This document shows, in pieces, positions 1-55,686 of a DNA stretch of 59,747 bases. Position numbers and translations under genes: made by a program. Under the pieces are notes generated by a model. It was not told the DNA's origin. It made no database searches and saw nothing but the letters and a program-made list of their open reading frames with translations. The stretch is from NCBI GenBank assembly GCA_051294375.1, contig JBJCIZ010000044.1:1-59747 (forward strand), read 5' to 3'. Origin of the DNA: Paraspadella gotoi (lineage: Eukaryota; Animalia; Chaetognatha). Each line of letters starts with the position of its first letter. Positions within the stretch are counted from its first letter, which is position 1.

Positions 1-388
1 GAGAGAGAGAGAGAGAGACATATAGAAATAAAGGACTAATACTGAGATGTAACAGTTTTGTATATTATAATAACAATAATCGACACACAGAAGAAATTCA
101 TTAAAGCTAATACCGAAATGGTGTACATATTAAGTACTCTAAGTCATAAAAGCCGTTTCATAAGGTTTATAACTGCTTTCTACCAAGCGGCTCTTCAAAT
201 TGAATACCGCATTCTCATTGGTGCATGTGGAAGCAGTCAACCGTTCAGGTACGATCTTGTGGTCTACTCTGTATAAAAGGGTGACAATTTTCGCTCTCGA
301 CATAAAAGAAGAAAAAAGAAGAACCGACGAGACCCGCATAAAAAAAACAAAAAAAAAAAAATTGGAGCAAGTGACTCAAATTATTCTA

Positions 389-620
389 ACGGCAACGGGA
401 GGAAGAGAGAAGATGGCGACAACGGCAACGGGAGGAAGACGATGGCGACATCGGGACGAAAGTAATAAGAAAGAGACTCCGATGGTCGGATCGAGAAGAT
501 GGCGACAACGGCAACGGGAGGAAGACGATGGCGACATCGGGACGAAAGTAATAAGAAGAGACTCCGATGGTCGGATCGAGAAGATGGCGACAACGGCAAC
601 GGGAGGAAGACGATGGCGAA
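389..620. repeat. Tandem repeat, ~85-86 bp unit, ~2.7 copies
   Basis: Unit gatggcgacaacggcaacgggaggaagacgatggcgacatcgggacgaaagtaataagaagagactccgatggtcggatcgagaa starts at ~411, 498 and 583; partial copy from 389. Confidence 0.9.
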
Positions 621-1079
621 AATGGCGGGGTCCAAATTTTTTTCCTCTACAATCCAAATAGCGACCATTAGTGTCATTTGCGCTCTGCAGCGTCGCCGTG
701 ATCAACTTAAATATAAAACTACCAAATTTTTGATTTTCTTAAAAGATCGTCAAACTGGGTAATTTCATTTTTTTATTCGTTAGGTTTAGCTAATTAAGAT
801 AGCATTTGAATAGCTGAGTTATTAACCTGGTAGCGTATAGAAGGCAATAATGGAAAGTAACGCCGATTTTGGATTTAAATTTAACATGTTTATTTCGCGT
901 TAGATATTGTAGATGGTATTATGACATTACAGTTCATATTTCTAGTCATACATCGCACTGTCGAGCAATAATCAATGGGTAACTTGTGTACTAATCCCGT
1001 GTCAGTTTTAAAATTTTTCTTTCGCTTTTTCGCTTCGTCGGTTTGGACGCTGATAAAGTGTACTAAAGTCTATGATAAC

Positions 1080-2071
1080 TTATGAAATAGTCGAGAGATA
1101 GTCAAAATATTCCTTTTTGCTGAAATCTCCGTTCTCGATGGCCACGTAATGTGCATCGGCTTTGGTATCCCAACACCAAAACAACTCGACAGCCTCATCG
1201 AATTTGATGTCTACGAGGCTTAGCGCCGTAAGGGATACTTCGGATGAAGTAAGAAGGTCTCCCGCGACGCCGCTATGCAGGTATTTTTTGGCAAAGGATT
1301 TTAAGTGTTCTTCGTTGAAGTAGAACTGTATCGGAGTTGATGAATCGGACAGAGAATTTGGTACGATGAACCAGGGGTTGGTGTAGTTATCCCTGAAGGT
1401 ATATAAATGTAATAATAATACTATTTGTGGTTTTCACTGATGGTCGTATTAGCTTCATTTACAAATATTAATAACGCGCATTGAAAATTTAATACTTTAA
1501 AAAATTATTACTAATAGTAATTAATCACCTGCGATTGCGTTTTCCGTTGTGGATAACATTGTCGTCCCAAGTCCAGTTCTGACGATTGGTGTTACTTCGC
1601 TTATATACCCGAAGGGTCGCCGCATCTCTCTTCTCTGGCTTTCTACCGATTGGAACTTGAAAGACGTCGACCGGCCACCTTGATGCAAGGATTCGGCGAA
1701 ACTCTTCTTCACCGGGAAGACGGACGTCATAGGTGTCATAGCATTCCGGCCACTCATTGAAACATGGGTCTGATTTCACCGAGCAGCGGTATCTAGTGTA
1801 GTAATGTTATTTAAATAAACGACTTAATAGAAACAAAAAGTATATTAAAAAAAAGTAACACCCTCTACTAATTTTCATCGTCTCACCTTTTCCTTTCGAT
1901 CTCGCTACTGAATGCCGACCGCTGCGCCCTGTATATCTTAAATTGCGACCGCTTTGGGCGGATCCATTTTTGGTAGCCGTCGATGGCAATTACTCGTGCA
2001 TCTAGTTGACTCGTCGTCCTCTCGATTTTCGCCCAAGCACAATAGTACAAACCTCTTTTCAATGTTTTCAT
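1080..2071 (-). CDS. Three-exon orphan protein, 253 aa (exons 2071-1887, 1792-1529, 1392-1080)
   Basis: Donors AG|GTGAGA (1886) and AG|GTGATT (1528), acceptors ctag (1793) and ttcag (1393); both introns phase 2 and join three stop-free frames (MKTLKRG...ERKR/YRCSVKSDPCF...RNRR/DNYTNPWF...YLSTIS*); 762 nt total; AATAAA downstream near 890. No recognisable domain. Confidence 0.75.
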
Positions 2072-2262
2072 TGTAGTTTCTTTAGACCTAAGATGACAAT
2101 TTAAAAATTAGTAATTAAAATTAACAAACTATGTTAAGGTCACCGAATCGTGCTTTATGCTTTAATCTTTGTCCACTCAACTTATAAGTAATGCATATAA
2201 TAATATATATTGGTTGTATCAATTTCGTATCGAAAGAGAAAACTTTCCAGGAAAAAAAAATC

Positions 2263-2612
2263 GGATCAGAGACAAGGGAAGATTTTACAAGTCGTCCTCT
2301 TGACCAATAAGAAAACGATGATACCCTAAGACGTTTTTAATTGGTAAATTGATTCGGTTACCAAATAAGGTAGGATCAGAGACAAGGGAAGATTTTACAA
2401 GTCGTCCTCTTGACCAATAAGAAAACGATGATACCCTAAGACGTTTTTAATTGGTAAATTGATTCGGTTACCAAATAAGGTAGGATCGGATGCAAGGGAA
2501 GATTTTACAAGTCGTCCTCTTGACCAATAAGAAAATGATGACACCCTAAGACGTTTTTAATTGGTAAATTGATTCGGTTACCAAACCAAATAAGGTAGGA
2601 TCGGATGCAAGG
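2263..2612. promoter_or_regulatory. 110-bp tandem repeat (3 copies + partial) with opposed CCAAT boxes in a divergent intergenic promoter
   Basis: Units start at 2263, 2373, 2483, partial 2598; each has gaCCAATaag and ttaATTGGta; further ATTGG ~2209 and CCAAT 2631; TATA-like cttataag 2181 and tttataa ~2664/2684 face the flanking genes. Confidence 0.7.
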
Positions 2613-2721
2613 ATATCAGAAAAAAAATAGCCAATTAGAGTCCTCTCATGAAGTCAAGGATCCTTTATAAGTCGAGATTTTTTTTTATAAATCACTTTCT
2701 TGCCTTTCGACACTGCTCATC

Positions 2722-3315
2722 ATGTTTACTTTTTTGAAGATCGCAATTTCATTCTCAATTCTCGGGACTGTTATCTCGAAATTTCCCGACATCGACGATC
2801 TGGACGAGGCATTTTCTGAATATGAAATGTCCGTCTATGATCAATCGATGCATCGACATCCAGAAGTCACAGTTTCAACTGATCGCGAGGCTTACCGACC
2901 GAAGATGATCGAACCGAAGGGTTTGGCGTCTGATGTTGATCAGCCGAGTGATTTGGTTGTCGCGGATCAGAAGGCCGATTCTCGGTCCGACGATCCCGCA
3001 AAGACCGTGAATTCGGATGTGGAACGGGAAATGAAAGCGGCACGAACGAGAATGGAAGTAATTGGCATGACGACGCATCAAGTGCTCGAAATTTTGGCAG
3101 CGGTGTTGGCGCCGACAGGGTTCGTGGCCTTCCTGATCGGGATAGGGGTAAGATGTTACCGCATGCGCCGCCAGGGGTTCTCGTTTTACGAGACCCTCCT
3201 TGTGGCGTTTTACCTCTTCGTCTCCCGCTTCTGTCCTGACCAAGCCACGTTTGGAGATCCTAGAGAGTTGGTTCGTCAACGTCCAGTCGTGGCGATCCCT
3301 CTCTCAGCGCCTTGA
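2722..3315 (+). CDS. Intronless 197-aa predicted membrane protein (signal peptide, acidic ectodomain, TM helix, basic stop-transfer, second hydrophobic segment)
   Basis: N-terminal MFTFLKIAISFSILGTVIS; TM ILAAVLAPTGFVAFLIGIGV followed by RCYRMRRQ; second hydrophobic stretch FSFYETLLVAFYLFV; GC-rich coding composition against AT-rich flanks. Confidence 0.8.
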   Translation: MFTFLKIAISFSILGTVISKFPDIDDLDEAFSEYEMSVYDQSMHRHPEVTVSTDREAYRPKMIEPKGLASDVDQPSDLVVADQKADSRSDDPAKTVNSDVEREMKAARTRMEVIGMTTHQVLEILAAVLAPTGFVAFLIGIGVRCYRMRRQGFSFYETLLVAFYLFVSRFCPDQATFGDPRELVRQRPVVAIPLSAP

Positions 3316-3336
3316 GGTCTCCAAAACTTAACTTAC

Positions 3337-3377
3337 CCCAAAGGCCCTTTTCAGGGCCGCCATTATTTAAAAGAATG
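3337..3377 (+). terminator. Replication-dependent histone mRNA 3' stem-loop with histone downstream element-like sequence
   Basis: CCCAAA-GGCCCT-TTTC-AGGGCC-GCCA (stem-loop 3343-3358) fits the metazoan consensus CCAAAGGYYYTTTTYARRRCCACCA except for the first 3' flank base; purine-rich AAAAGAATG at 3369-3377; 27 nt after the stop of ORF 2722-3315. Confidence 0.85.
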
Positions 3378-3574
3378 TCAGAAATAATAATATAAATGTT
3401 TATTGCTCTCACTGAAATGGCTATTACTTTATTTGAATACGGAAAGAAAAGTAAAATAAGGAAACTAAATTTTGAAAGAATGCCAAAAATAATATTATAA
3501 ACGTTTATTCTTTTTACGAAAATAGTTACTTATTTTATGCGAGTAAAGATAATATAAAACTAAATTTTGTCCAT

Positions 3575-4047
3575 TTATGGAGTTTTAGTACTGTTCTTGA
3601 CCAGTACTTCCAATGCACGAATTTGTTCTTCGAGTAGCTTCGTGTATTTGAAGACATCGACGACTTGGCCCCTGCAGGAAAGGAAACGATTTTATTAGGT
3701 ATTAGGAATATGTAAATATTCATTTCCATCATAACTTGCCTAATTTTTTGCTCGACCCTTCTTGCCCCTCTTCTTGTATTCTCACGATTAGTCAGAATAC
3801 CGACCTCGTACATTATGTTGTACTCTTTTATCCCAGGTTTTTCGGCGTTTCGATCATCTTTGCTAGAGGACAAAGAGAAATATGATTTATATTAGTTAAT
3901 AAGAGAAAATCTCAGTCAATTAATTTTAAATTTTAATCTGGGTAAATGAAAAACATACAGTTCTTTGATAAACTTTCGATAGTCTTGTTTTTGGACCAAT
4001 TCCGCCCTTGCCTGGAGCCATGGCATCTCCATAAAGTTGATATTCAT
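3575..4047 (-). CDS. Three-exon 102-aa basic/coiled-coil orphan (exons 4047-3959, 3862-3740, 3671-3575; second intron GC-AG)
   Basis: Donor CT|GTATGT (3958) to ctctag acceptor (3863) is in frame; AG|GCAAGT (3739) to cctttcctgcag (3672) gives ...VEQKIRGQVVDVFKYTKLLEEQIRALEVLVKNSTKTP*; AATAAA downstream near 3505. Confidence 0.6.
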
Positions 4048-4319
4048 TTTCTTCTTTTTTTTTCAACAGGACTGTTAAAGAGGTAAGGTAAGGTAAGTTA
4101 TTAAAATTTCATATTAACTAAACGGTTTTTGCCCGAGAAGGTTTTTTTTTTCTTTTTTTTTTCTTTCTTCTTTAAAAATATTTTTATTATGGGATTTTTT
4201 TCTTTTGTTTTTTTTGTAGAAAGAAAAATACACATAAATCGAAAAATTTAAAAAAAAAAACAGACGATGATGACAACTCAAAAAAGTAAAGAAAAAAATT
4301 GAGAATAAAGAGAAGGCGC

Positions 4320-4552
4320 CGCCGACCGTTGGGACGGCTTCCCGTTTCAAAACAGGACTCCCTCCCTTAAAAATTTCCAACAATCAGGAGCCAAGGTCTC
4401 GATTTCCCTTTCAAGAGAGGACCCCCTCCCTTAAAAATCTCCACCAATCGCGAGTCAAAGTCCTGATGCCACAACGAGAAATTTTTAACCAATCGGAGAT
4501 GAGGATAAATTTAATTGTCTGTTAAAGCACGTGGGCAGGTGCATATAAATCA
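4320..4552. promoter_or_regulatory. Second divergent promoter region with CCAAT boxes, duplicated block, E-box and TATA
   Basis: Imperfect duplication ccctcccttaaaaat(t/c)tcca(a/c)caatc at ~4359 and ~4424; CCAAT at 4444 and 4489; CACGTG at 4528; tataaat at ~4545; lies between the divergent genes at 4047(-) and 5095(+). Confidence 0.5.
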
Positions 4553-5094
4553 AAATTCACAAACTATTATTAAGTTTTAAATACTTTTGTTTTTTGGGCA
4601 ATTTGTCTCGTATCTTTATTTAGTTTGAGTTTTTCATAATTTGTGTATTAGGTCACAAAAAAAAAAGTGTCCACAATAGATGTAACCTGCAATCTCGTTA
4701 TGGGGGCTTTTAGTTATTTTATTTATTATTTTATTCAATATTATTTTTTTTTCGCCTCGTTTCCTTCTCTGTGACAATATTTAAGTGTTATTTTTCACTT
4801 TTTTTTATGTTTCAATGTTCCTCTCACTATTAATCATTTTTTTCACAATTTAGGTGTTGAAGTGTTTAAAGTTACCAAAAGGGTATCATTAATAAAAAAT
4901 TTTAACCCTTTTCGTGGGGCGCTGATAAATCTTTTTTTCTAGAGTCTGTTCAAGTTTTGAATCCTCATTCTCTCTAGTAAAACCGTTTTATTTTCTTCGT
5001 CTCTTTTATTTAATTTTTTTTTCAGCGCGTTTCTGTTGCGGTTTTATTTTAAATATTAACATTGATTAGAAAATTTTAGTTTTATTTTTATAAG

Positions 5095-7857
5095 ATGGCG
5101 GACGAATTAGGAAATTCCGACTCGGTCCAAGTGATAGAGATCGACGTGATATACAACACCGTCGCCCANNNNNNNNNNGGTCACAAAAAAAAATGTGTAA
5201 ATGTAAATGTGCAAAGACGCATAGGTGAGTTGGAGGAACAATTTGCTCTTTTTGCCGCCTCCACTTTCAACATCACCTTTACAGACGACGATAAAACTTC
5301 GTTACAAAATGCGCGATCGAAAATCGCTAATAAAATTGACGCGCATAACAAATATGTCGAAACCTACCGCGCGTTCGTCGCAGACCAAAATTTTTTAAAA
5401 AAATTGCGCGCGATTCTCGATAAAGACGACGAAACTTCGACGTCTTCGACCCTAGGAGAGGAGCCGCGCGAGTTAGGTTTTAACAATTTTGACTCTAATG
5501 ACATTCCGCACTACATTGACGACGGCAATGCTTGTACCGTTACAGACAACGCTACTTGTAACGGTACCAATAACAATGACATTGTAGACGCGTCCTCCTC
5601 TGACAGCAGAAAGGAGCCAATCACTGTTTTCGACGACGTCGATTACCGAGTAAACAACGACGATCTGGCGGTGTCGTCTTTCGCCGAAATCGAAACTAAT
5701 ACCTTGTATAACGTCGACCAACGTGAAAAAGAACCAAATCCGTTTTTCGACGTGTCACCAATATATCCAACGTCGCCAACATTCTGTGACATACTAATAT
5801 CTGGTGATTTGTACGGCAAAGACGAGGCTAAATTCGTTTCGCCGCCAGTCAAATCTCAAACGGAAAACGATGATGACGCTCCCGCTGATGATTTTGGGGA
5901 TGTTTTATACCCATCAGACATTTTGACGACATTCGTGGACAACCCGGTCCAGGTTATCTCCAAACCTCATAATTTTGTTCACGACATCGAAGCATCGACG
6001 TCGTTGAATACCTTCCGAGGCATCTCGGCCATCAACGATTGTCAAAATGCAGAAATGGGATCAACGCCCCAGATGACGTCATCTCCTATTGAGACAACAA
6101 ATGAGATACCTCCTATTCCTTCCACCCCAACCCCCAACCCTGACGTATCACCAACACGATTGGAAAAGGGAAAGGGGTTGGGTAAGTCATCGTTGCTCCC
6201 TATGACGCCCCCTCGTGGCAAGCCCAAATCCTTCGCGGCCCTAAATACCCCTCAACGGACCCCTAGAAATAAAAGACGTTTTGTGAAAATTCTTCCGGCG
6301 GTTCCCAAGTCGGAAGAAAACCCAACAAAAAAGGCCAAGAAATTGACATCAAAAGTTTTGCAAATTGCCGACCCTCTTCAAAACGAAGAGTCGGCTTTGT
6401 TGTTTTTAAATCAATGCAACGACGATGGCAATTTAGTAAGACAGAGTACGAGTCAAAACTCGAGCCTCGTCGACTTCATGGCAGACAACAATGACGGAGG
6501 TGATATTCTCCAAGATGCACTCGACATGGCTCACCTAACGGGTCAGTGAGTAAGTACTGTTATATTTCTGTTTATTTTTTTTTACTATTATGTCTTTATC
6601 GTAAAGAGAAAAAATGCAATAGTTGTCAAGTTTTTCTATTTATTTGGGTGGGTTGTTCTGTTTTAAACGAGTTTTAATGGGCTCAGGTTTAAAAAAATAT
6701 TACCTTGTTCTTTTTATATATACTTTTTTATAAATAGCTGTAATATATGTTATTAAACAATCAAATGAAAAGAATTTAGTTTATGTCGCCCCTAAAAGTC
6801 AAAAATGAATACAAATTTAAAAAAAGTTTAAACTTTTTCCTTTCTTCGTTCATATGCAAATGAGACCGAAATCGAGGCCAAACAAAAAGCTCTTGTTTAT
6901 TCTATAAGTTGAGACTGACTTTTCCCTTTCACAGAATCGCAACTTCAAGCGGATGACGATATCCCCGCCACCCCCAAAGACGTCTCCGCGGTTGTCCCCC
7001 GACCAACCATATCATTTAGATTAGCATCGACGGGGATGACTAAGAATGTCACCACTAAGTTATACAATACGTTTGCAAACTGGGTATCCATTTTTAACGT
7101 ATTTAATCGGTTAGGCGATTCCGCTCTACTTAAAAGGATATGCCTTTTATGTTTAAAAATTACATCGAGGGGAAAGGCCAATAATTTAAAAACTCATTTG
7201 GCAACAACTTGCAAAGTTGCGAGGTGTTTAATTCCACCATTGCCTAGCGAACAAGACGACCCCGATCTACTTTTAGATTATATTTGGGTGGCTTTTTGCA
7301 ATCTGAATGGTTGCCAGCGCATCGTCATCGTTGACGAGAGTGATATTCAGGACAATGCTCTGAAAAATCACTTCGTGAAAAATCACCCGAAGATAACCTT
7401 TGCCAAGCGCCACAAAAATGACATGACATGGTGCAAAGTCCGTGAAGCCGGCGTAAATCTCTATCTGTGTCCATTCTGTGATAAACAGATTCCAACTGTT
7501 ACAGAATGCAGGGCGGAAATGGTACTTCACTGTATGAAGAATCATAGCGACCAATATGTTGTTTGTGTGGTATGTTCGCGTCCGAAATTATTGGCCAATC
7601 TCCGGGGTCATTGTGTAAGACATCTTTGCAATGATGACTTGGTTGGGATGGGTAACACACGTTTGACTTGTGCATCGTGTGATTTTGTCCTTGACACCAT
7701 CGGAAAAATAGACACGCATATTCCTAAATGCAATCCAGTTCGTGGCCATCACACTAATTTAGGCTTTAAAACTTATTTTAAAGGATATTGCTCCGAAATA
7801 GCCAAGACTCAAATTTTCTGTCGCGGGGCTTCTCTACCACACTATGACTCACCATAG
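5095..7857 (+). CDS. ~789-aa putative transcription regulator: coiled coil, acidic disordered region, NLS, BED-like finger and three C2H2/C2HC-like fingers (exons 5095-6541, 6935-7857)
   Basis: Phase-1 donor G|GTCAGT (6542) and acceptor ctgac-tttccctttcacag (6934) join ORFs 5095-6549 and 7036-7857 in frame; W..F...CLLCLKITSRGKANNLKTHLATTC is BED-like; CPFC..H...NH, CVVC..HCVRH, CASC..HIPKC. A 10-N gap at 5169-5178 makes the N-terminus uncertain. Confidence 0.7.
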
Positions 7858-8624
7858 GTGGCTATTTCGGCTTTAAAAATAAATTAATTGTTTTAAAAAA
7901 TTTTTTCTATTGCCCCTCTAACGTTAAATTTGTCGTCGATCTTTCTTAGCTCATTGCAATTAAAGCCTACAGTGTGTACCAATTGGTGTATTATTTTACA
8001 ACATTAATTTAATGTTTATTACCATGGTGGTAACGTTAAGTTTTCTCGTTAATGTTTTTTTCTTTAATTTTATAGATTAAGGTTATTGTTTGTTATTAAA
8101 CAAATAAAGTAGTCTTCTCTAACAAAGTCATATTGTTTTGTTGAATTATAATTTTTTTTTTTTTTTTTTTGTGTTCGCTCATTAAAGTCTTTATTTTAAT
8201 CATCGCCCTGCTTTCAATAATTTCCAAAACGTTTGTTACATTTTTATTTCTGACTGTTATGTTTGTTTATTTGTTTTGTATGCATTTGTTCCCTTACCGT
8301 TTATTAGTATTAATGATTTAGATATAAAATAATCGAATTTAAATAAAATAGTCTGGTTTTCATAAATATTTTTTTTTAGCAACAAAGACAGGAAGAATTT
8401 TAAGAAAAAAAATGTAGACACCAGATTTAAATAATTGCAAGTGGCATCAATAAATAATATTTCTGTTTTAATGGTCAAATTTATAATATGACATACCAAA
8501 TTATTCGCATTTTTACTACATAAAATTTAATTTAGATTTTTTGATATTTCTTTTAGTTTTGGTTGATTTGGAAATTCTACTAAAACTTTAAAGTATTAAT
8601 TCATCGGGGGGCGCTGCAATAGAA

Positions 8625-11092
8625 ATGTCTGATTCTAAACTCCAATGCGTTTTGAACATTCGCGAGTGTGATACAACATATTTTAAAAAAGTCTATAAAA
8701 CCACTCTCGAATTAAAGGAAATCTATAAGGCACTCTGTACTAATAAATCGGCTTTGGTTGTTCTTCACACAAAAAAAGGCAGAGAAAGCGTTTGTAGTTG
8801 TGTTCACGTACTATTTAACTGCATTCAAATGAAAAAAAAATGCACTGTGTTAGCTGAACTGTTCGCGAAAGCTTGTTTAGTTTTTCCAAAATTTGGCGAA
8901 AATTCTGAGTTTGAAAACTACTTTAAAGAGAACTGTATTGCCTTTCCAGTGGAAATTTTCCTCGTCATGGCTGATTCCTTCTTAAATTGTGAAAATCTCG
9001 ATTATAGGTGGAATAGAAGCTACATGCAACACGAAAAAGTCATCCCCATGTTGCCATCTTTAGATTTGATTCACGCTGGTCTGAGCTCTCAGCAATTCCA
9101 TCGGGTCAACTCTCCTTCAAGCTGGAGCTCGTGTCTCTCTCCCATGACCACCTTTAAAACGATAAATTTCAGAGGTCTTAAGCGTTTAACGACCGATCTC
9201 GATGGTCCCAGCGACTCTTCGGAGCCAGAGAGCAAAAAGGCAAAACCTTCTGATTCTAGCTTGGCGAAGCTGGAAGAAATCGCTAATGGCGACAAATCGG
9301 CGTCCAAAAAAATGAGATCATATAGTGCCCTGAAAAGTCTAATCGAACAAAAGGGAATCAAAGACTTTCAACAACTGAAATCTTCTCTGAGTGAACAAGA
9401 GCTGCAGCTCGTGATGTGCACTTGCGAAAATTTTCGATTTGTTGCAGATGAGATTATATATAATCAGAATTTAAAGTACTACGAAACAAGGTTTGAGCTC
9501 ACTTATTTTGAAAAACTCAGTCAAAAGTATGAAGTAGCCCTTCAAACCGCTCTAAGGACTCAGAGACAAAAAATAACCAAATCGTGTCTATTTTTAAGAA
9601 AGTTCCTACTGGCCCAGGGATTTTCAATAAAAAATCTCCTTCTTTTCCTTAATCGATTTTTTGTTAGTCGTCAACTTAATCGAATTGGAGAAGAAAAACC
9701 AGAGGAAAAATGGCTCTCTTCCAATTCATTCCCAGAAGGTTCCCCGAATGGAAAGCGTAACTGTTTATACATAACAGGTTAGTTAACTTTTTTAGTAAGT
9801 TCCATAAGTTTTGCTAATTTTTTAAAAATTATATTAGCTATTCTTTTGTTTATTGATGAATTCGACTCTTCCCGCTTAGACTCTTCCTCTTCCTCTTCAG
9901 ATACACTCTCACTTTCTTCGTCCCTCTGCTCTTCTCACATTTTTCAAAGAAAAAAAAAATTTGATTTTGTAATAGCCAAAGCCGATGAAATTTAAATGCT
10001 AATGTATACAGCGTTAGAATAATCTATCATGACCATATATTATGGTATTAAAATATTTTTTTTGTCAAAAATGCTTTCTTCTGAGGGAACTCGCGCCTAA
10101 TTAAAAATATTATATTACTATATATAGAGCAAACATTTTTTTTTAAATCTTAAAATTTTTTGATGGATTCTGATAGAGCATAAAAAGTTAAACGAGAAAC
10201 ATAATTACTGCTTTTAAAAATTTTTACGTTTTCCAAGTGACAATATAAAAAAACTGATAAAATCATGGAAAGATGATGATGATGATGATTTTTTATGGTT
10301 TTTATTATTTTTGACACACTTATCATAAAAATATTTAAAAAAGAATTATACTTTGTGTAGACAACTTTTTATGAGCTATCTGAATCTGGTCTTAAAATTT
10401 AAAAATTTTTAAAAAAAATTTTTGGCCTTTCCTATTTATAAGTAAATATTAAAAAATTAATTACTAGGGTATAGAGCCATATTAGAAATTTTTTGTCCAT
10501 TGAAAGTATTCTTAAAAATGTCTAAATATTCGTTTGAGCATGTACTCGCTCTAAATTTTTGACTCACCCCATTGAGTGCGGCTACCCCTATTTGTAAAAA
10601 TCAAATTACTTAAAATTGCAGGAAAAAGTTCTACCGGCAAAAGTTTTTTTCTGGATATCATCTGTTCTCCGCTTAAGACTGCCAGCTTAGCGATGACATC
10701 ATCGTTTGCGTACTCACAACTGGCGGCTCAAGGGTGAGGAACCATTTTATATTTGATTGTCAAGGCTAGCAGAATTTTGTGAAAGTAGTGGTATTATCCT
10801 TTGTATCTACAGAGTGGAGGCGATCCGTCAGGACGAGCTGGCACTCAAAAAGACGCGTCTGGACGTAAGCAGTTTAAAACAACTGTTCGGAGGAGAGGCT
10901 CTTTTGGTTGACAAAAAACACTCCTCTTGTACCGAGGTCAAGCGTCTTCCTTTTGTTGCATCTTCTAACCAAACAGTCGCCGAACTCTGCCCCGACAACG
11001 AAATTGACAGAATCGCTTTGGAGTCGAGAACTTATCAGCTGTCCTTTAAAATTCCCTTAATAAATGAAAAACTTGTACACGACGTTGTCTGA
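8625..11092 (+). CDS. Parvovirus NS1/Rep-like protein with SF3 helicase, ~514 aa, three exons (8625-9777, 10622-10733, 10813-11092)
   Basis: Splicing G|GTTAGT...ttgcag|GA creates KRNCLYITGKSSTGKS (Walker A); GG|GTGAGG...ctacag|A leads into AIRQDE (Walker B), KQLFGGEALLVDKKH (B'), PFVASSN (motif C), ALESR (Arg finger); exon sum 1545 nt = 515 codons. Confidence 0.88.
10096..10469. mobile_element. MITE-like foldback insertion in NS1-like intron 1
   Basis: Imperfect ~100-bp inverted arms, e.g. gattctgatagagcataaaaagtt (~10166-10189) versus reverse complement of aactttttatgagctatctgaatc (~10363-10386). Confidence 0.55.
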
Positions 11093-11256
11093 AGGGCTCT
11101 CAAAATTTTCCTTTACATTTCATTTGGTTATTTTAATATGATACGATCATGGTAAAGTGAATTAGTCCATTTTGGTGAAGTTGTTATTTAAAGTAAAAGT
11201 AAAAGAGGAGCTAACGATCAAAATTCTAAGAGTTTTCAACCGGGAGTCAGATTCGG

Positions 11257-11400
11257 AAGAGAGAGAGAGGGAGAGCGACGGAGATATCGAGAGAGAGAGC
11301 GAGAGCAACGGATATCGAGAGAGAGAGGGAGAGCGACGGATATAGAGAGAGAGAGAGAGAGCGACGGAGATAGAACGGAGAAAAAGGAAGAAAGACGGAA
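11257..11400. repeat. GA-rich compound tandem repeat with gagagcgacggagatatc-like units
   Basis: Four imperfect (GA)n-GCGACGGA(GA)TAT units directly downstream of the NS1-like gene. Confidence 0.8.
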
Positions 11401-11419
11401 ATATCCGATGGAACTAAAT

Positions 11420-11821
11420 CACGTGACTCGGAAGCCAGGGACGCGGCGCGGCGGGCGCTGCGGGCACGGCGCTGGATGGTGGAACCAAAGACAGCTGTTG
11501 GGCGCTCGTCAGGTGCGTCGCCAGGCGCGTCAGGCGCGTCGTTGGGCGCGTCAGCTGCCTGGAAACCGAGGTCGCTTGATCAGGGAGGAACCAAGTAAGC
11601 TATAAAAGGAAAGGAGGAAAGGAAAGAGGGTCTTCCCAACTTTTCAATCCACGGAGACAAGCTGCGCTCTGTGGTGCATTTAATGGAATATTGTTGTAAC
11701 TCTGTACTATTTATCTTCAAATAAATATACACTATCTGACTCATTTACTTCAATTTTTCTGACGCTAAGTTATAGCTCAAGCTGTAAGGTGCTTGTAGCA
11801 GCCAAGGCCTAGCACGCTACA
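11420..11821 (+). repeat. LTR-like or promoter-like segment (probably a 5'-truncated solo LTR)
   Basis: GC-rich GGCGCGTC direct repeats, TATAAAA at 11601, AATAAA ~11720, ends ...gctaCA at 11821; no partner LTR or TSD found. Confidence 0.3.
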
Positions 11822-13156: not shown

Positions 13157-16100
13157 TTTCCCCCATCTAAAGTCAAACGGATGATTTTAAAAATCTATCG
13201 CGCTGCTCGTACGAGTCGTTGCTAGGCACCCTTTTAATTAACGCCAGGCCTCCACATGCTTGTCAACTTGGTTTCGTCAACAAGAAGGACGAGTAGGCCG
13301 ACCTCTGGATCCGAAGTGGATAAGACGTCATCTGATGTTAAAGGATGATAATTCTCGGTGTCAAGGCCGAGACGATGGAATCGCTCATGATGCTTCGCCT
13401 CGGAGGACAGCATTGTAGCATTTTTCCCCCCGCAGTCGACGAAGGAGACAACTAACAAAGAGGCGAGATAGATTCTCTGGTACATCTCCGTCGATGTCGA
13501 CGACCGAATAAACATGAGAAAAAATTTCCATTTTGAAACCAAAATATTTTTTTACAATTAGCGAAAGAGACATTTCGCTGTCGATTGAGTATCGACGAGA
13601 GACTCGAGGGATGCTTCTTGCCGCAGATCACGCTGAAGGATAAAAAATCTCTAATTTGCGCTAACGAAATCAGCAATGACGATCCAGCATCCACGAGGCA
13701 ACGGAAAAGATGGGCGGAGAAAACGGGAGAGCATCGACGAGGACGGAGCCACCCGCAACAACTCGGCGATGAAACCCGGATGATCTCTGGTTACCATGGA
13801 GACCAGACGCTCGTTATTGGCCACGTCGACCCCGGCATCCAAAGAAAAATTCAGCCCGCATCATGGAACCAATTCCATATCACCATTTTCCCGTGAAAAA
13901 GAGAGAGAGGCCCAGATTCGCAACATCAGGACGTTTCTCTATTCGTCCACCAAGGATGATCCATGAATTTAGACAATTCGATATTTGAAAAACGAGAAAA
14001 ACGCGATTTTTTTTAACTCGAAATTACTTATTTTTGACGATGAGCGAAAATCGCCATGAAAAAATAACGAATTTAAAACATGAACTTATCTCAAAGGTGA
14101 GACAAATTAGGCGACAACGTGGATAAAAAATTTACTCAAAGACTAAACTTTGACGCGACGTAACATAACGACGCCACAGGCATCTCGGAGGCATCTCAGA
14201 AGAAGAACTGCTCCGGCGTCGTCTCTGTAGGCTCGGTCGCGATCCAAAGAAAACATCTCGATGGAAGTAAATCACATTGATCCAGTCACCTCGGCCCGTT
14301 TAAACGTATCGTCGACCAAATTCGCTTCACAGCGAAGCCACCCTGCATGTTGAAGACATGCTTCGCTGATGGCGCCGGAAAAAATCGGCGTCGAAAAGCT
14401 GCATCGATACGAAGTCAGGTTGACAGATGAATTTCCGCGGCGCTCGACGACCACTTGGCCGATTGGATCGTCGACGGTCCCGTCATCTTTGTAGAAAGGG
14501 AATCTTACTACCGCGGCCAAATTCGATTCTCGGCATCCACGAGATGAAATAAAAGAGAGAAATCTTTTCTTGCGCCGGTGATGCCTCTTCACCAAACGAG
14601 AGAACGTCAACGGCGAAGGACATCCTCCATATCCAGATGGAACGCATCGTCAACCGAAGAAATCTTCAATTTTTCACCTTTGGCCTAGGAAGTGTAGACT
14701 CAGAGCCGAGAATAAAAATATTTAACGAGACTAAGCTGCATTTTCAATCACTTTGTAAAACAGATATTTTAAAAACGCAATATCTCCCATAACCCAAATA
14801 ATACAAAGCTGAACACTGTCGTAGCTCAGACGACGATCGCGATTGGCGCCGCAGGGTAGAAACGCGCCTCTGCTCGACGGCTAAACAGCAAAGTCACGTA
14901 GCCTTTCACACGGCGCCGGTCCTGACTTGTCCGGCGCGGCGTCAGACTAGATTTTCCTGCTGCTCTTCGATGTCGAATTGCGTGAAGATACTTTTGAAAA
15001 TCCCGCGACCTCAACGGGGCTCAATCCGTCTAATGGAGAAGCGGATGATGATTTTTTCCACAAAAGCAGCGCTCCTTTATCGGGCAGATATCGACACAAT
15101 GACCGCTTCCCAAGCAGTTGAAGCAGCGGGCTTGAGAGATGCAAAGTTTTCGACGATCTGCGGGCCACAGTCGTTGAAACTTTTCGCAGCTATGCAAATA
15201 GTGGCGTCCCTTGCAAAGTGCGTGGACGCCGACTCTGAAGACGGCGTTCCCGTTGATGCAGGAACGGCTGCGGCGGCCACCGAAGCCTTCTTTTTCTTCG
15301 ATGATTTGTCCACCGTCGCGGCGTTGACCCTCGCCGCCATCTTTGCTTTGCTCGTCGCCGCTGGATCTTTCCCATTTTTCGCCGGCGGTCTGAAATCGAG
15401 AACTTCTTGGTTTATGGCTAGAAAAGACAAGAAATCAACAAAGGAGAGATCGTCGTTCCAATCATGATTCTGTCTAAAAATAACCACTTTTTTCGCCCAC
15501 TTATCTGAAAGGTGTGGCATCCGTTTGGAGAGCAGATCCGCCATGACGGCCGCACAGTCGAGGTCTGCAAGTCGGTCCGACTCCTTCGCGAGGTCGTACA
15601 CCTGCTGCAAAGTGATCAGAAGACCATGATGACCTGCTGAGTCCTTTCAATCGAGCTTCAGACCGCCGAGGATCTGTTCAATCATCTCGTCGGCCGTCGT
15701 CCGCTTCATTCCCCACTTTCTCTTGAGAACGCCGAGGGCGTCGCTAAGAGCCGCGGTAGCGTCGTATCGAGATAGAAATTGATCGATGGAACGCTTGGGA
15801 AGACCGTCGAACCAGTGAGGAAGCTCCTTCAACTTCATTGGATCCGTAGCGCCCTCCAACGCGCAGACGCTGACATTGAAATCGCGAAGTTGACGCTCAA
15901 AGTCTAGACGTGACGAAGTCTTGTCGACCTTGATCTTTGGGCGTTGCTGCTGAAGCATTTGGTAGGCAAGCGTTTGAGCTTGAATTTCCAAGAAGCCCAT
16001 AGCCATCGCAGCGGAGCGGACGAAGGCTGCCTCGAACGGCGCCACATCAGAGGATGACGCCGTTTGATGCCTTGAGGGGACAGAGACATCTCTTTCAATA

Positions 16101-18700
16101 GAAGCCGGCGTTTCGGCGATCATCACTGCAGCGGCAGGAACGCCGGCAGGCGGGGTAGGCGTGGAACCGGGGGGAGGATTCACTCCCCTCATTCTCGACA
16201 CCTCACGATGCAATCCTTCATTGAAGAGTTCCCTTATTGCGTCGCGCAAAAACTCCATTGAAACGAACTGCGGATTTGGCGAATCAGCGGCAGGTGGAAC
16301 GACATCGGCTTCCGTTCCAACGCCCGCTGCCCGCCGCCTCCTCGCATCCATGTTCCGGTTCCGGCGGATAACGCTCACGAATCATCGACGAATTGACGCC
16401 GACTTTGTTGAGACGTGATGGCTATTCATGGCAGTGAATCGTCAAATCATTCGACGGAGGTGGAGTGTGAAGACGGTTGACGAACTGTTGGAGAGAGGGC
16501 TCATGACGGGGGGAGGATGACTGAGCCACGACCCACTCGGCCGTATGTGATGTCGTTGAAGGCGTAAGACGTTGAAACAGGTCTCTCTCGACTTTGCCAA
16601 GAACTCGTATTACCGGCCTCTGCAAATCTTCACCTCTTCTCTCAATTCTTTCCATTCTCGTCCTACTTGCGCTTTTGGCGGTAGCGGCGGTACACACGTC
16701 GTACTCCGCCGATTCACGCAACTCTCTCAATCTATCCGGTGCTCCATGAAGAGTGGAAACTGAACAAATATCCAGCGCACTTCCATCGACACCGACGCGA
16801 GACGCTTCATCAATAATCGAGCTACCATTTGATTCTATCTGGTTGGGGACAAGATTAGATTTGATTGAAGACTCTGTCTCTCGTCGATCCAGATATAATG
16901 GCGACGTCGTCCCTGGAGATGCCGCGCGGCCTGCTGCGATGCTGAGCACCGCATCAGGCCCGGCTGACATCTCCTGGGCTAACGCTTCCACATCTTCGTC
17001 GTCAATAGTTGGATGAGTGAAGTTGGTATTTCTCTCTGTGCGCTGATCATCCGTCAACGCCGAAATGGCGTCAAACGGAAAAATGATGGACGTTGCTGAT
17101 TCGACGTCATCTTCTAGAGTCGGTGGAGGGGACGGTAAAGGTCGGGATGGACGCAGCGTAGTCGTCGTCGGGATGGTTTGCAGCTGAAGGGACGGTTGGG
17201 CGTCAAGTCCCGATTCCTTCTGCGTCGTCGTCATCCGTGCTGCAGCAGATACGGAGCGTCCTGTGGATGCTGTGCTTTCAACCAATGAAACACGTGTCGA
17301 CATTGAATTGGCCCACAAATCGAGCTGACGGCAATGCCCAAGGATGTTGCTGAGGCGATTGAGGAACTCCGACAAAGTTCCAACGCCTCGTCATTCCATC
17401 TACCTTTTGTAATCATGGAACGGATAATTTCACAAGTTGCCTTAAGAGTGAATCTATCCGCGTTGGCTTCCGGAATGTTTTCCTCCGTCGGGGCGGTTTT
17501 GGCGCGATCGTATGAAATTGCTTGAGCCTCGATCACCTGGTCGACGGTGAGGTTCCGTAGGAAGACGTCGCATTCCTGAAGGGTCTGACTCGTTGGGAAT
17601 AGAGTCATTTCCGCCGTGAAGAAGAGTTGTTGATATCTCGGATGGCTAAGTTTGGGAGAGGGTATCAGCCGGTCATCTTGAAGTTGTCGATGTCTCTCTC
17701 TTTCGCCGCACTAGTGCGAGCTTAATCTCGTCTTACAAACGAACGGCGAGGTCCACAAAAGACGCCGAAAGGGGAGTTCCTTGAAGGCTTTCGGCACTCG
17801 AGCTTCTCGACGTATTTTGATTGCTGGCGCGCTTATTCTTCCCGTTCCTATTCGTCGCGCGCGATGGCATAAAAAACGGCGTTGAAGTCGAAGGAAGGCT
17901 TCCGAAGTCGGTGGCAGCCAAACGCAAAGACGAAGAAATAAAACAAGTCGAAACCGGACTTCAATCTCACTGCCAGTTTCGAGAAGGAGCGGCGATGCAC
18001 AATCCGTCGACGTGTCCAAAATTACGCGGACGGCGTCGTCGCTAGTCGAGGATCCCTAATCGCAATGAAAGCAGTCCCGAAGGCGCCCGGATCCTTACGT
18101 CCGTCGAAGGCGTTGCAAGGCCTTCGATTGATGGAAACGTCGACTTTTCGACACCTAGAGACGACGCAGGTGGATCTTCTTCCCAAATCCCGCAAATCCG
18201 GAGGATTAGAGAGCCTTCGACGAAGCACTTGAGCAGGTGTTCCGCAAACGAAGACTTCTAATGTTTTGAACTAAGTTCGGAGAAGTGGCGTCTTTGAATT
18301 CTAACTGACTGGACTAATTCTGCGCATTGAAGACCAGATGGAATTGGGTATAAAATGGCGCAGAAAGAGAGACGATGGCGCCGGTCCAGACGCCCTGGAG
18401 ATGCTGACGACAAAGTCTCATAGTACGACGTCGGCTAAGGCCGAAATGATGACTGTCCACTAAGCCCAGGACTTGACGAAATGTCTATGTAAGTCTGATG
18501 TGGAAGTTGTGTAGATGAGTCTTGTTGCGTTGAGCTGTGTTGTGCTTGTCGTGAGTCTTGTTGCGTGAAGTTAGAAGTCTGGGCAAGGAATAACAAAACA
18601 TTTAGTACAAACTCAGCAAATATATATAAGTTTAAAGTGTCTTTCTTACTTGTTTCTGAAGCCAATAATAAACAAAAATAGAGATGCTTCTCTCATAGAA
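13157..18700 (-). mobile_element. Decayed BEL/Pao LTR retrotransposon, pol largely deleted or eroded
   Basis: BEL-type Gag with triple Cys-His boxes, a C-terminal PEVGLLVLLVDETKLTSMWRPGV motif typical of the BEL post-integrase domain, PPT-like GGGGGAAAG near 13157-13165, PBS-like TGGTCTTC near 18336. Outer boundaries approximate. Confidence 0.7.
15030..16378 (-). pseudogene. gag: BEL/Pao gag (disrupted)
   Basis: DFERQLRDFNVSV...KLKELPHWFDG...ALGVLKRKWG; LLSKRMPHLSDKW...SFVDFLSFL; CKGRHYLHSC...RCFNCLGSGHCVDICPIKERCFCGKNHHPLLH at ~15030-15220; interrupted by stops/frameshifts. Confidence 0.8.
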
Positions 18701-22092: not shown

Positions 22093-22417
22093 CTTCAATT
22101 TTAATAAGTTTGAGATAAGAGCAGAGGTTTATTTTTAATATTTATAAAATTTATTGTTTGTCAATGTTAAAAACTCTGTTTTATTAATTTTTAACAAAAT
22201 TTATACCGTTGTGATTGGTCAAAGATTTTTCCAGCCACAAAAAAAATAATTTTCACCATCAACAAAATTTTTCCCACACAAAAAAAAAAAAAAAACTTAT
22301 AGGGCTTGTAAAATTTCCCCACCCAAAAAAAAAAATACTCTTAAGTAAATATAACAAACAAAGAAAAAGAGAGAGAGAAGAAATAAAAACATTAAATATC
22401 GTAGTAATAATATCTAT

Positions 22418-22467
<50 letters not shown>

Positions 22468-26282: not shown

Positions 26283-31511
<5,229 letters not shown>

Positions 31512-39999: not shown

Positions 40000-42900
40000 G
40001 TGAATCAAGAAAAGTCAAACTTGCTGAGTTAAAATAGACAGAAAATCCGACCAATAAGAAGCGGGTATCAGTGATTCTCTGAAATTGAATTGAAACAGAG
40101 AGTGCAGAAGTAGCTAAGATGAAAAACGCTGGTGTGATTAGAAGGATAATAAGGTTGAAGGACTAGAGAGGCATATAATACATATTATGATTTACTATTA
40201 ACGTTCCCGATTTATTTGTTGCTGAATAGGGAAAATGATTACAAATTTTATTATCGTTACAACAGATAAACAACAACTAACACTTCTCCGGGATTAGCTA
40301 ATATGTACACACTGTAATAGTGTGGTTATGATCTTACTGTTTGGTGTTGAGGTGGGAAGGGGGAAAAAAAGGAGGAAAGAGAGGATGGCGAAGAATAAAG
40401 AAAGAAAAAAGAGCGATGGCGCTTTTGTCTTTTCCTTTGGCGTTCACTTTGAGAGGCGGATTTTTTTCTTTTTTTTTTTTTGCGATGGAGAGAAAAAGTT
40501 TTTTTTGTGAAATATTAGTTAAAAGTTAGTTTTTTTTGCGCGAGGAAAATAATAAAAAAATTAGGATGAAAAAAAATTAAGATTAGGAAAGATGGAAGAA
40601 AAAAAAATTAGGGAGAGTTGGGAGAGTTTGCCGGTTAGCCAGTTAGTCGGTAGAGCAGGGAAACTTAATCCTGGGGAAGGTTAAACCTTGGGGAGAGACC
40701 TGATTGGGCGTCACTGGGAAGATGGGTATCTAGCTAAAGGTAGGTACTATCTAGTCTCTCATCAGGGAAAAGAGGTAGGAAGGGTAAGGAATATATTGGT
40801 AATGGGTAAATAGCTACAACAAAGGGAACAAGGGTACATAAATAGGAGTGAAGGGAGAGGGAAAGTTTTCAGACCCCGAGACCGAGAGGAGAAGTTGAGA
40901 GAGTCTGTCCGATCTCCAAGACTCTATCCATGACTCCAGGGATGAAGAGGAGGGGACGACGAGGGGAGGAGGAGGCGTTGAGAGGGGGAAGAGAAGGCCC
41001 GGGGGAGAGAGAGGTTCTGGCGGTAAGGTGAGCCTCTATCTTGGATCTCCATTGACAGGATCAAGCCAGCAACAACAGAACCGGATGTCCAACCAACACC
41101 TCCAGCAGCCCCAAGAAGAGGACGACCACCAGCAGCAACAGGCAAGTCATTTCCTAGGGGGGAAGGTCAGACAAATAATAGAACAAGAGTTGGCTCAGAG
41201 GCCGACTCCACTCATTCCCAACATTTTAACCCTCAGTGGCCCAACATAAGACGTCAACAAGAACCTCCACAGCACCACAACACCACCACGACAACAATCC
41301 ACTCAACAACCAACACGACTCCAACCTCAGAGACAAGCACGTGCAGACATACCATCGTCTGGTTCTGGAAGGACTAGATATATATTGTATTAGATGTTTA
41401 AGATCTATCAGTCATTCGCGATGATCCGTGATGTAGATATCGGTTATCAGACAAGTATCACCAAATCAAGTCTACCAGTTGGTCCACTAGTTACAGATAA
41501 TCACAACTGGACCAACAAGCAAAGTAATCATACACAGCTGGTTAATTATTCACCATATATAACCAAAGTTGCCTAACACAAGCAATCCATCATAACAACT
41601 TTGACCAAACAAATCATTTTTCCTATCTTCCCTACTTCCTTTTTGGTAAAATTATTTTCCCAAACATCTTTTTTTTTTTTTTTTTGAAGAGATATATGTA
41701 AATATTTATTGTAGAAGACAGAGCCCTTTTTAGTGAGGAGATCCCCCAATTAGTTTCTTAACACTTATTGTTTGCCCAAAATAATAGCCCCCAAGGGAAA
41801 ACAAATATGTAAAGTACTTGTGTCCTTAACTAGTAGTACAAGTCACCTACAACTGTTAAATAGGGTCAGTTCGAACCCATAAAGGCACAGGAAACATATG
41901 AGGGGTGGAGAGAGACGACTATACCACCGAGTCTCAGTCACTCGTAAAACCCTTACACTCCACTCTTTCTCCGAGCCGGATCTAATGTCCAGCAAGGACT
42001 TTGCCTAGCTTTGGAAAAGTGACCTTTTGATTGACCGGACACAGTAATATGGGCCCAAGGCGAGCACGTAAGTCAAGTTAGTCGCGGCGATGAATAGTAA
42101 AGATGATCAGGAGAGAGCTCGCTTCACTTCTTTCTACTTCTCTTACATCGTCACAATTCTTCACCTTCTTCTCACTTTATTATTACTATTTTCGTCTTCT
42201 CCAGTACTATCCTTATAAATCGAAAAATTTCAAAATAGGCTTTCTTAATTTTGATTGCAGATTTGAATTCCTCGTCAAAAGTTGATAAAAGAACATATAA
42301 GTCATTTTTGAAAATTCTTTCATTAAGTGGGTTAAAAATTTAAAAAAACTATATTAATATATAAAAAGTAAATTTTCAGCTTAAAAATATAGCTTTTTTT
42401 AATTTTGACCCACTTAATGAAGGAATTTTTCTAAAAGAGTTATATTTCTTTTTATCAACTTTTTATGACGAATCCAACATCTGTAATAAAAATCTTAGAA
42501 AAAAACTAGTTTGAAATTTTAACATTATTGGATTAGTACTAGTATAAAATATGGCCTACTGCGTAAATTGTAAAAATTTATTATAAATTTTTATCTACAT
42601 AAATGTTTATTAGTATAATGTTGTTCGTTCCTCACTTTTAGAATTTTAATCAAAGTTAAATTTTAGGAATTTACTACGCCTTACTTGATACCCTCTGTAT
42701 AGCTACTTCCTATTACCATTACTATTACTATCCATTACTATTACTATTACCTTACTTACCTCTTTTCCTGATGAGAGACTAGTTAGAACCTACCTTAGCT
42801 AGATACCCATCTTCCCAGTGACGCCCAATCAGGCCTCTCCCCAAGGGTTAACCTTCCCCAGGATTACGTTTCCTGCTCGACCGACTAAGCAACTAACCGG

Positions 42901-50555: not shown

Positions 50556-50997
50556 TGAAAACGCTGTCGGATCAGCGACACGACACGGAGAAAAGATTTC
50601 GCCTCAACGCTCATTGGCGGATCAAGCGAAAACTAACGAATCAGAGATCGACAAAAAATAGCACAGACTAAAAGAGTTTACATTTTATGAAAATTGAAAA
50701 CGTTTTTTGATGATTGCTTGTGAAATACTTAATGTCAATTACGATCATTGTATTATTAGATTCTACAAATTGTACCTTTATTCGATATGTATTTTCACAA
50801 TGTTTATTGCATTTATCAATTCATAAACATTCTATTTGTATGCTTTAAAATAGCAAACGGATCCGGTGTAGGGTGAAAATACCAAGTGCTTTCGATCAGG
50901 TCCGATCGCGAATAAATAAACATTGTATTTTTGTCAATTGTCGCTGGTATTATATTTCGATAATAAACTTTACGTCTACATAAAAAGTGCCCTTTAA

Positions 50998-51011
50998 TGG
51001 TGAGCCCGACG
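50998..51011 (+). promoter_or_regulatory. Primer-binding site, tRNA-Trp-like
   Basis: TGGTGAGCCCGACG differs at one base from the canonical tRNA-Trp PBS TGGTGACCCCGACG; same sequence at 26735. Confidence 0.75.
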
Positions 51012-51831
51012 AAGAATAATTATTTTTCTACCTTCTGATTCCAGGTTTTTTTAAAACCGTGAACGGAGGTCTGTCTAAAAGATCGTCTAAGGGAGCATCT
51101 CTCTTCTTTCTTCCGCCATGGCCTCGCTTCAACGCCTTCGACGTCGGCCGTGTCCGTCAACTCCCGGATTTCTGGACAAACGACGCCGACCTTTGGTTTT
51201 CCGCGCAGCAGTCCCAACTGCCGTCAAGAACTCTCGGCTTCCCTTACGAAGTACCACCACGTCGTCACGGCTTGAACGAGGAGGTGCACGGAAGATACGG
51301 AGTTTTTTCTCGACGACCCGGAGGCAAAGCCACGTCCCTACGAAGCCCTCAAGCACGCCTGCTCGAGGCTTACAAGCCAACGAAAGCGGAAAGGGCGGAG
51401 AAATTATTTCCTCAACAAATCTCGGCGGCAAACATCCCCGTGATTTTCCACGAGTATTTCGGCTCTCGCTGAAGGTCTGGATTCGACGACTTACTGCGGG
51501 CACTGACGCTGAAGCCCTCCCCGAAAGTCGCAGTCGTCGTCACGCAGACCCCCGGCGGTGCCGGGGAACTCGCCAAGGCGGCGGCGATTTATTTCGACGC
51601 AGATGGCCATCCATTGGTCAATGAAGTTGCAGATTCTCGTCGAAGCACCGGCGCGGCCCCACCGTTGCCCGGCGTCAGAGGTCTGACGGCGGAGGAATGC
51701 CCGGACTGTTGCGCGGCCTCCGCGGCCGGTATGGATATGTGTTGGTACCACCGCAAGTTTGGAGAAGGGGCGCGACGCTGCAAACCGCCGTGCACACACA
51801 AGACCGGCGACAAAAAGAAGAAGAACCGGCC

Positions 51832-51838
51832 GGGAAAC
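51832..51838 (+). promoter_or_regulatory. -1 ribosomal frameshift slippery heptamer G GGA AAC
   Basis: In the gag frame (CCG GGA AAC, ...RPGNA) with pol in the -1 frame starting GGG AAA CGC; downstream structure obscured by an N-gap. Confidence 0.7.
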
Positions 51839-55199: not shown

Positions 55200-55686
55200 A
55201 GACGCTGTCGGATCAGCGACACGGACAAATATCTCGCCTCAACGCGCATTGGCAGAGCCGGCGAAAACCGACGAATCAGAGAGCTTAACGAAAAGCACAA
55301 ACTAAAAGATTTACAGCCTCTGAAGATTAGAAACGTTTTTTAGTGTTTATTTGTAGAATATTCAATGTACAATGACGATCATTACAGTTTTGTAAACTAC
55401 TCGATTGTACCTTTCGTTCGACATGTATTTTAACATTGTTTATTGTATCGAACTAATTGTTAAAACGTATTTTTGTATCCATAAACAAACAAACGGATCA
55501 AGTGCACTGGTAAATTTACGCGTGCTTTCGATCAGGTCCGATCGCAAAATATTTAAGCGTTGTAATTGTTATTATCGTCGCTCGTAATTATCAAATGATA
55601 ATAAACTTTACTTATGCCAAAAGTGCCCCTTTAATATAATTATATATATAATAATTATATGGTTTCTTACTTTATTATTGCCAACG

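Follow-up and report, generated by a model that had tools for sequence, protein, structure and literature searches.

A cluster of five gene models, g1 to g5, is located between positions 1080 and 11092 of a 59,747-nt stretch of the genome of Paraspadella gotoi (GCA_051294375.1, contig JBJCIZ010000044.1, positions 1–59,747 of the forward strand, with eight N runs), which is referred to as the window. The preferred reading, to which a probability of about one half is assigned, is that these five open reading frames (ORFs) belong to a parvo-related DNA element that sits intact and at low copy number in the chromosome, is furnished with extra genes, and is devoid of a recognisable capsid. The compact head-to-head layout of the genes, the tandem-repeat spacers between them, and the surrounding retroelement remains speak for this reading. 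The novel point of the locus is g2, a predicted membrane-protein gene which is intronless and ends in a histone-type stem-loop. An original prediction, which had placed the element at 389–11400, overlooked this stem-loop as well as a foldback in an intron of g5.

The NS1-like helicase gene and the stem-loop behind g2

All five models were confirmed, with products of 253 (g1), 197 (g2), 102 (g3), 789 (g4), and 514 (g5) amino acids (aa). The region holds four ORFs of at least 190 aa as against a mean of 0.01 and a maximum of 1 in 200 local shuffles, so the open frames of the original prediction stand far above chance. The consensus splice sites it described are borne out by seven predicted GT-AG introns, with one further intron being GC-AG; this assignment follows from splice signals and from the frames, all of which are open across the introns. 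Every protein query consisted of a single exon, and the scans of metagenome and viral contigs detect close relatives only. The Pfam scan placed no host family above its cut-off for g1 to g4 and gave a family match only in the last exon of g5, NCBIfam yielded none, and PHROGs yielded three weak matches for the exons tested, all of unknown function. An exact sequence look-up returned 0 of 6 matches. Capsid, PolB, integrase, and transposase genes were not recognisable among the element ORFs, and the VP jelly-roll capsid family had no match in any exon tested (Pfam, PHROGs, and NCBIfam; g1 and g3 queried exon by exon). The earlier statement that these functions are not recognisable was upheld, and none of the neighbours was assigned to a host family. 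Since the orphan genes were queried one exon at a time and by sequence alone, they may include a divergent capsid.

The gene g5 comprises three exons on the plus strand (8625–9777, 10622–10733, and 10813–11092), and its predicted product of 514 aa ends in an NS1/Rep-type superfamily 3 (SF3) helicase region. Exon 3, one of 12 pieces scanned, matches the Pfam family Parvo_NS1 (PF01057) with 25.5 bits at a cut-off of 20 (E 7.7e-6, 67 residues). Nine of its 12 weak matches in the PDB are adeno-associated virus Rep or parvoviral NS1 (E 0.65–1.9), and two of the weak matches are titled just 'DNA replication protein' and 'Non-structural protein 1'. The P-loop GxxxxGKS, as read from the sequence, is interrupted by intron 1 and lies partly in exon 2. 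Thus, g5 provides the NS1 with SF3 helicase domain by which Parvoviridae are recognised, and the NS1-like gene of the original prediction holds for exon 3, to which the likeness is confined. Among 1.84 billion protein cluster representatives, nothing matched the N-terminal 385 aa at E 0.001. Exon 1 found none among 2724 protein candidates, none in the PDB, none among 86 metagenome contigs, and no usable match in the Atlas; exon 3 found none among 180 protein candidates, 11 viral contigs, and 397 metagenome contigs. A search of the N-terminus for a HUH nuclease domain gave no Pfam, PDB, or HMMER match.

Intron 1 of g5 contains a foldback of 295 bp (10130–10424, unstranded) with arms that are 68% complementary. 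It resembles a foldback repeat found at 42224–42520 and 45012–45329 (69–75% identity over 83–113 bp, E 1e-8 to 7e-6) and is best classed as a repeat of host type. No AATAAA occurs within 400 nt downstream of the g5 stop. The sole AATAAA near the end of the gene falls in the stretch 11057–11092 of the last exon; the stop codon ends 33 nt further on, an arrangement also found in compact viral genes.

The intronless g2 (2722–3315, plus strand) encodes an orphan of 197 aa with a predicted signal peptide and one predicted transmembrane segment. Its hydrophobic stretches, at the N-terminus and at about residues 120–146, fit the membrane protein foreseen in the original prediction, and none of nine protein candidates was a relative. 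In run X4, one of the sequencing runs considered below, a 216-nt contig with a depth of 5.9 shows about 87% similarity to the beginning of g2 (2762–2850), which may be a rare relative, another organism, or noise. Behind g2, on the plus strand, follows a histone-type 3' stem-loop (3338–3382, with a 16-nt core at 3343–3358), the single Histone3 match in the whole window; its score against Rfam RF00032 is 28.7 bits (E 8.7e-5), below the gathering cut-off of 34. The core lies 27 nt 3' of the stop codon of the only gene without an intron, and its fold has a stem of 6 bp and a loop of 4 nt, with G-C at the second position of the stem and U at the third of the loop. In its structure, g2 thus agrees with a histone-type 3' end, namely a 16-nt stem-loop with the diagnostic bases close to the stop of an intronless gene. 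Additionally, a purine-rich stretch starts 10 nt after the stem.

A stem-loop 23–31 nt after the stop is reported as typical of animal histone genes, with whose diagnostic bases the g2 hairpin also agrees (bioRxiv 10.64898/2026.10.14.759114), and the SLBP/U7 pathway acting on it is described as unique to histone mRNAs (PMC10730174; further histone background in PMC13525598). Like replication-dependent histone genes, g2 is intronless and has a CCAAT/TATA-like upstream region, the 16-nt stem-loop, and purine-rich sequence downstream; unlike them, it encodes a predicted membrane protein, its RF00032 score stays below the cut-off, and its RNA end is a prediction only. No AATAAA is present downstream of g2. 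This gives weak support to a stem-loop ending and counts little, because g5 also lacks the signal in the 400 nt behind its stop.

Two further contigs in each of the runs X1, X4, and X5 match about 35 nt at the stem-loop and then diverge on both sides (depth of about 36, 209, and 22 each, respectively, from one bin). The loose ends flanking these matches encode, by eye, IRGERA and KKK-stop, which we take to be the ends of histone H3 and H1/H2A. Since the matching contigs carry these presumably histone-like ends, the hairpin behind g2 seems to be a histone signal of the host itself. The 22-mer of the stem-loop had no match in viral contigs. Moreover, the literature searches, with subscription papers mostly outside their reach, returned no case of a histone stem-loop on a non-histone gene of a virus. 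Whatever the nature of the whole cassette, g2 makes it possible to ask directly whether the SLBP/U7 pathway serves a non-histone gene in a virus-like context.

Chromosomal state and competing readings

Nine sequencing runs of one organism, from three studies, share part of positions 5200–11100, five of the nine at half of the sequence words or more. Over 1–4120, the contigs of four runs were compared, among them three DNA samples that belong to two studies; the listing gave 26 of the 95 pieces and 19 of the 36 loose ends. Small sequence shares in X8 and X9 were not counted, nor was the missing cover of X5 at 3451–4120 counted as absence. The depth over the unique parts of 1–4120 is flat, at 44–52 in X1, 166–235 in X4, and 7–13 in X5, and unrelated contigs touching this part have depths of 208.8 in X4 and 11 in X5. 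The locus over 1–4120 therefore does not seem to be amplified; the window may itself derive from the sample of X1 or X4, and the depth comparison is to be taken as a hint. X5, which belongs to the other study, continues through 61–436, so the left flank is common to both studies. It differs from the window at nine positions and by two single-base indels in about 2.8 kb (about 0.3%), with three differences falling in coding sequence (two synonymous and one non-synonymous), too few to show selection. The flat, near-background depth together with a left flank shared across studies at about 0.3% difference speaks for a chromosomal locus of low copy number rather than a free virus. Among the contigs matching 1–4120, a comparison that reached the left end only, no circular joints were found.

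In simulated neutral decay, all five frames remained without a new stop in 5 of 500 trials at 2% divergence and in 0 of 500 at 5%. Frames are spoiled quickly by neutral decay, and therefore the cassette should be either young or under selection. If the foldback in g5 intron 1 is an old insertion at this site, the frames would have been kept by selection; alternatively, it could be a divergent subfamily or could have come with the element.

Several observations weigh against the preferred reading. The similarity to parvoviruses is limited to 67 residues of g5. Where a HUH motif might lie, at residues 59–61, g5 has C-V-H and no H-x-H, and single-sequence AlphaFold models of the N-terminus reached predicted local distance difference test values of 34 and 32, too low for use; a fold search with the first of these low-confidence models gave no match at E 0.001 and carries no information. 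With C-V-H in place of H-x-H and both structure models unusable, a HUH nicking domain in g5 is unproven. Neither termini nor a target-site duplication, an empty site, or a second full copy was found, and the original notion of five genes travelling together finds a counterpart only in a partial relative of g3 with 87% identity. This relative shows no clear constraint (four synonymous and five non-synonymous changes in codons 7–29), its first start codon is altered, and its changes affect 12 of 96 intron and 9 of 74 exon positions. Furthermore, in X4 one loose end indicates an insertion-like break at about 3850–3855 within g3 exon 2. Among the contigs listed, g1 has no relative of at least 85% identity and the sole one of g2 is an 89-nt match (2762–2850) of depth 5.9. 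The contig comparison was confined to g1, g2, g3, and the left flank; contig depth does not equal copy number, and one or two comparison contigs were available per run.

In the main rival reading, which is possible and on balance doubtful, g5 is a lone captured NS1-like gene, perhaps domesticated and with gained introns, and g1 to g4 are fast-evolving, lineage-specific host genes which happen to lie nearby. The low-copy depth and the occurrence of the locus in two studies agree with this, as do the ordinary spliceosomal introns, an AATAAA after three of the five genes, the host-type foldback within g5, the lack of detectable ends, and the wide distribution of endogenous NS1 in invertebrates (PMC5013282, PMC13055364). 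It is opposed by four adjacent genes for which no family above the cut-off and no relative was detected and which are packed within 11 kb, separated by tandem-repeat spacers, and surrounded by repeat debris, an objection weakened because the collections searched are thin for spliced eukaryotic genes. An improbable alternative holds that the region is part of an integrated DNA virus of larger size, or of a giant mobile element, reaching beyond the left edge of the window, where its capsid or polymerase genes would be located. No left boundary is apparent, the depth is flat from position 33 on, and an X1 contig extends 166 nt beyond that position; adomaviruses (9–20 kb, with SF3 helicase) can bear zinc-finger regulators, and parvoviruses larger than 5 kb are known (PMC11071296). 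However, the window contains nothing resembling such genes, and the adomavirus replicases treated in PMC11071296 are LT, E1, and CressRep rather than NS1.

It is highly improbable that a free virus or episome, whether circular or linear, was joined to host DNA by error at GA microsatellites. The GA runs at 1–18 and 11258–11368 and the gapped scaffold would suit such an artefact, but in X4 and X5 the depth differs little from that of unrelated contigs, the studies differ by about 0.3%, five of the nine listed runs, all from one organism, share half or more of the sequence words, and the intron holds a host-type foldback. The captured extrachromosomal element of the original prediction is accordingly disfavoured.

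If the preferred reading of a chromosomal parvo-related element is correct, g5 would act as a ring-forming ATPase/helicase initiator, binding a tandem array such as that at 407–619 and starting the copying of the element with host polymerases. The gene g4 might encode a transcription activator of the element itself. Transcripts of g2 would receive their 3' end at the stem-loop through the host SLBP/U7 pathway, and such an ending could link g2 to S phase, when an element of this kind would have to replicate. A wider proposition, which is unlikely and is advanced tentatively, is that the locus stands for a new class of capsid-less, intron-bearing animal 'SF3 transposons' of about 11 kb, which are copied by a parvovirus-type helicase, have their own zinc-finger activator, and draw on the 3'-end formation of host histone mRNAs so that a membrane protein is made in S phase. 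A five-gene unit that is both intact and spliced, if real, would signify either a lineage, so far unsampled, that stands between parvoviruses and rolling-circle transposons or the wholesale domestication of one. If g5 is a lone insertion, the interest falls to a domesticated NS1 gene and one non-histone gene with a stem-loop.

Relation to known viruses and mobile elements

The locus resembles the endogenous parvo-related loci of invertebrates in having a chromosomal NS1-like gene with a C-terminal Parvo_NS1 region (PMC5013282, PMC13055364, PMC6880638), and the loci of PMC10433990 were compared as well. In the papers considered, endogenous parvo-like sequences are either NS1 fragments or units of NS1 plus capsid. 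The densovirus loci of tapeworms likewise are without a recognisable N-terminal domain, and some of them occur close to histone clusters, whereas here a histone-type 3' end is borne by a cargo gene (PMC6880638). Tapeworm loci consist of NS1 and VP with inverted terminal repeats, often as concatemers; here, neither VP nor such repeats were detected, four extra genes are present, and the helicase gene has introns (PMC6880638). The two-cassette layout of about 5 kb that is usual in Parvoviridae also differs from five genes over 10 kb, if these form one unit. The literature searches, which left most subscription papers and the Repbase reports outside, did not bring up any account of an NS1 unit that is spliced, is without a capsid, and carries cargo of this kind.

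NS1-domain elements of invertebrate genomes have been proposed as transposon-like, including the acorn worm repeats, Hydra DENSOV_HM, and planarian PIVE/PEVE (PMC3198968). The acorn-worm repeat has two ORFs, one with a VP1 domain, a terminal hairpin, and more than 50 copies (PMC3198968), in contrast to the five genes, the absence of a VP1 match, and the seemingly low copy number of this locus. Many dispersed copies, as in such repeats, are not seen for 1–4120, where the depth is near that of unrelated contigs and a partial g3 relative was all that turned up. Bidnaviruses, large Cah-bearing parvoviruses, and adomaviruses are likewise large SF3-helicase DNA viruses with accessory genes, and one clam adomavirus has a zinc-finger regulator (PMC11071296). 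However, these three groups are defined with virion proteins, and bidnaviruses also with PolB, none of which was detected here (PMC11071296). The virion genes of adomaviruses often need structure prediction to be recognised (PMC11071296). The adomavirus penton and Cah genes had no sequence match in this locus; the PolB of Bidnaviridae had none among the element ORFs, and no sufficiently long ORF exists other than g4 and g5.

Helitrons carry cargo. Like the present locus, in which no capsid is recognisable, Helitrons and Replitrons are eukaryotic and capsid-less; they are of HUH type (PMC10288648), and a HUH domain in g5 is unproven. The locus belongs to neither group: Helitrons combine a Y2 Rep with an SF1B (PIF1) helicase, whereas the only helicase match of g5 is the SF3 Parvo_NS1 family, and Replitrons are without a helicase, whereas g5 has an SF3 region (PMC10288648).

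Neighbouring genes, spacers, and the rest of the window

The largest neighbour, g4, has two exons on the plus strand (5095–6541 and 6935–7857) and spans a 10-N gap at 5169–5178, which makes its start uncertain. The bases directly after the gap resemble 4651–4670, so that a small duplication or mis-join is possible and the 5' end of the gene may differ. Its product of 789 aa combines an acidic, S/T/P-rich N-terminal part with a basic patch and five C-terminal Cys/His finger patterns (exon 2), and it is likely a transcription regulator by this layout. The zinc-finger regulator of the original prediction is supported by these patterns and falls short in Pfam, where zf-BED and zf-Di19 score below the cut-off; a separate search gave weak C2H2 look-alikes. 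Exon 2 found no relative among 685 candidates (longer proteins only) and 13 viral contigs.

The orphan g1 (253 aa) lies on the minus strand in three exons (2071–1887, 1792–1529, and 1392–1080), with an AATAAA 186 nt after the stop. The g1 exons tested have no relative in Pfam, NCBIfam, or viral contigs, and exon 3 found none among five candidates. Around exon 2 (1521–1806), two overlapping minus-strand frames of 84 and 93 aa are open; the single synonymous X5 difference in this exon agrees with the modelled frame. The run X9, which is of RNA by guess only, has one 166-nt contig of depth 2 in exon 3, which was not counted as expression. The orphan g3 (102 aa) also comprises three minus-strand exons (4047–3959, 3862–3740, and 3671–3575), its second donor being the GC of the GC-AG intron. 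Its 87%-identical relative, present in X1 and X4 (two of four runs), covers exon 1 and intron 1 with 29 differences over 234 nt and hints at a small family.

A left-hand array of an 85-bp unit (407–619, unstranded) has 2.5 copies that are 99% alike, and its units can fold as imperfect hairpins. The DNA fold of its plus strand gives z values of −3.7 to −4.8 against shuffles, with weakly defined structures. The apparent copy number differs between samples, the depth over the unit exceeding that of adjacent contigs by a factor of 2 to 7. The array is a candidate origin or enhancer, and its repeated GATGGCG is presumably a YY1-like motif. An 82-aa Arg-rich ORF at 413–661 was rejected as a gene; it is made of this array, the unit of which is not a multiple of three and seems variable in copy number.

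The spacer between the divergent g1 and g2 contains 2.9 copies of a 110-bp tandem repeat (2263–2585, unstranded) with CCAAT on both strands. This repeat raises the CCAAT density of the spacer to 12.3 per kb, against a background of 2.0, as compared with 1.9 in the g3/g4 spacer; of the two CCAAT-rich divergent promoters originally described, only the first holds. At 2071–2346 many short contigs stack up, the depth reaching 1042 in X1 and 3381 in X4, and mark a high-copy repeat piece in the g1/g2 spacer; weak look-alikes of it occur at about 56500. The g3/g4 spacer has two 60-bp direct repeats (4339–4462) that are 83% alike.

On the right, a GA-rich satellite with a 28-bp unit (11258–11368, unstranded) resembles other GA arrays of the window; a terminus role is unsupported and, of the tandem repeats claimed for both ends, the left one is borne out as an array. 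The claimed left and right ends have only GA runs in common. Around 389 and 11400, no long inverted repeat was found, just short AT-rich pairs and stems of at most 9 bp, and the terminal inverted repeats or hairpins of Parvoviridae are lacking there. The flat depth includes 33–436, left of the claimed start, without a step at 389. These two positions therefore did not hold up as element ends, and the true ends may be elsewhere. Beyond the satellite, 11400–11760 is GC-rich, has TATAAAAGG near 11602 and AATAAA near 11720, and is possibly a solo long terminal repeat (LTR); TATAAAAGG recurs at 272.

The remainder of the window consists of broken retroelements and short repeats, and the decayed transposon debris reported around the cassette was substantiated by remains of RVT_1 (Pfam) at 51955–53241. 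A MIR529 match at 22351–22466 was rejected, as it sits on a TC microsatellite. Frameshifted minus-strand ORFs at 14800–17710, without a Pfam match and with no pol seen, are presumably Bel/Pao gag-like. Two related, decayed copies of an LTR retrotransposon lie at 26449–31426 and 50722–55550; RVT_1 is confirmed in the second, and a 198-nt poly(A) run breaks the first.

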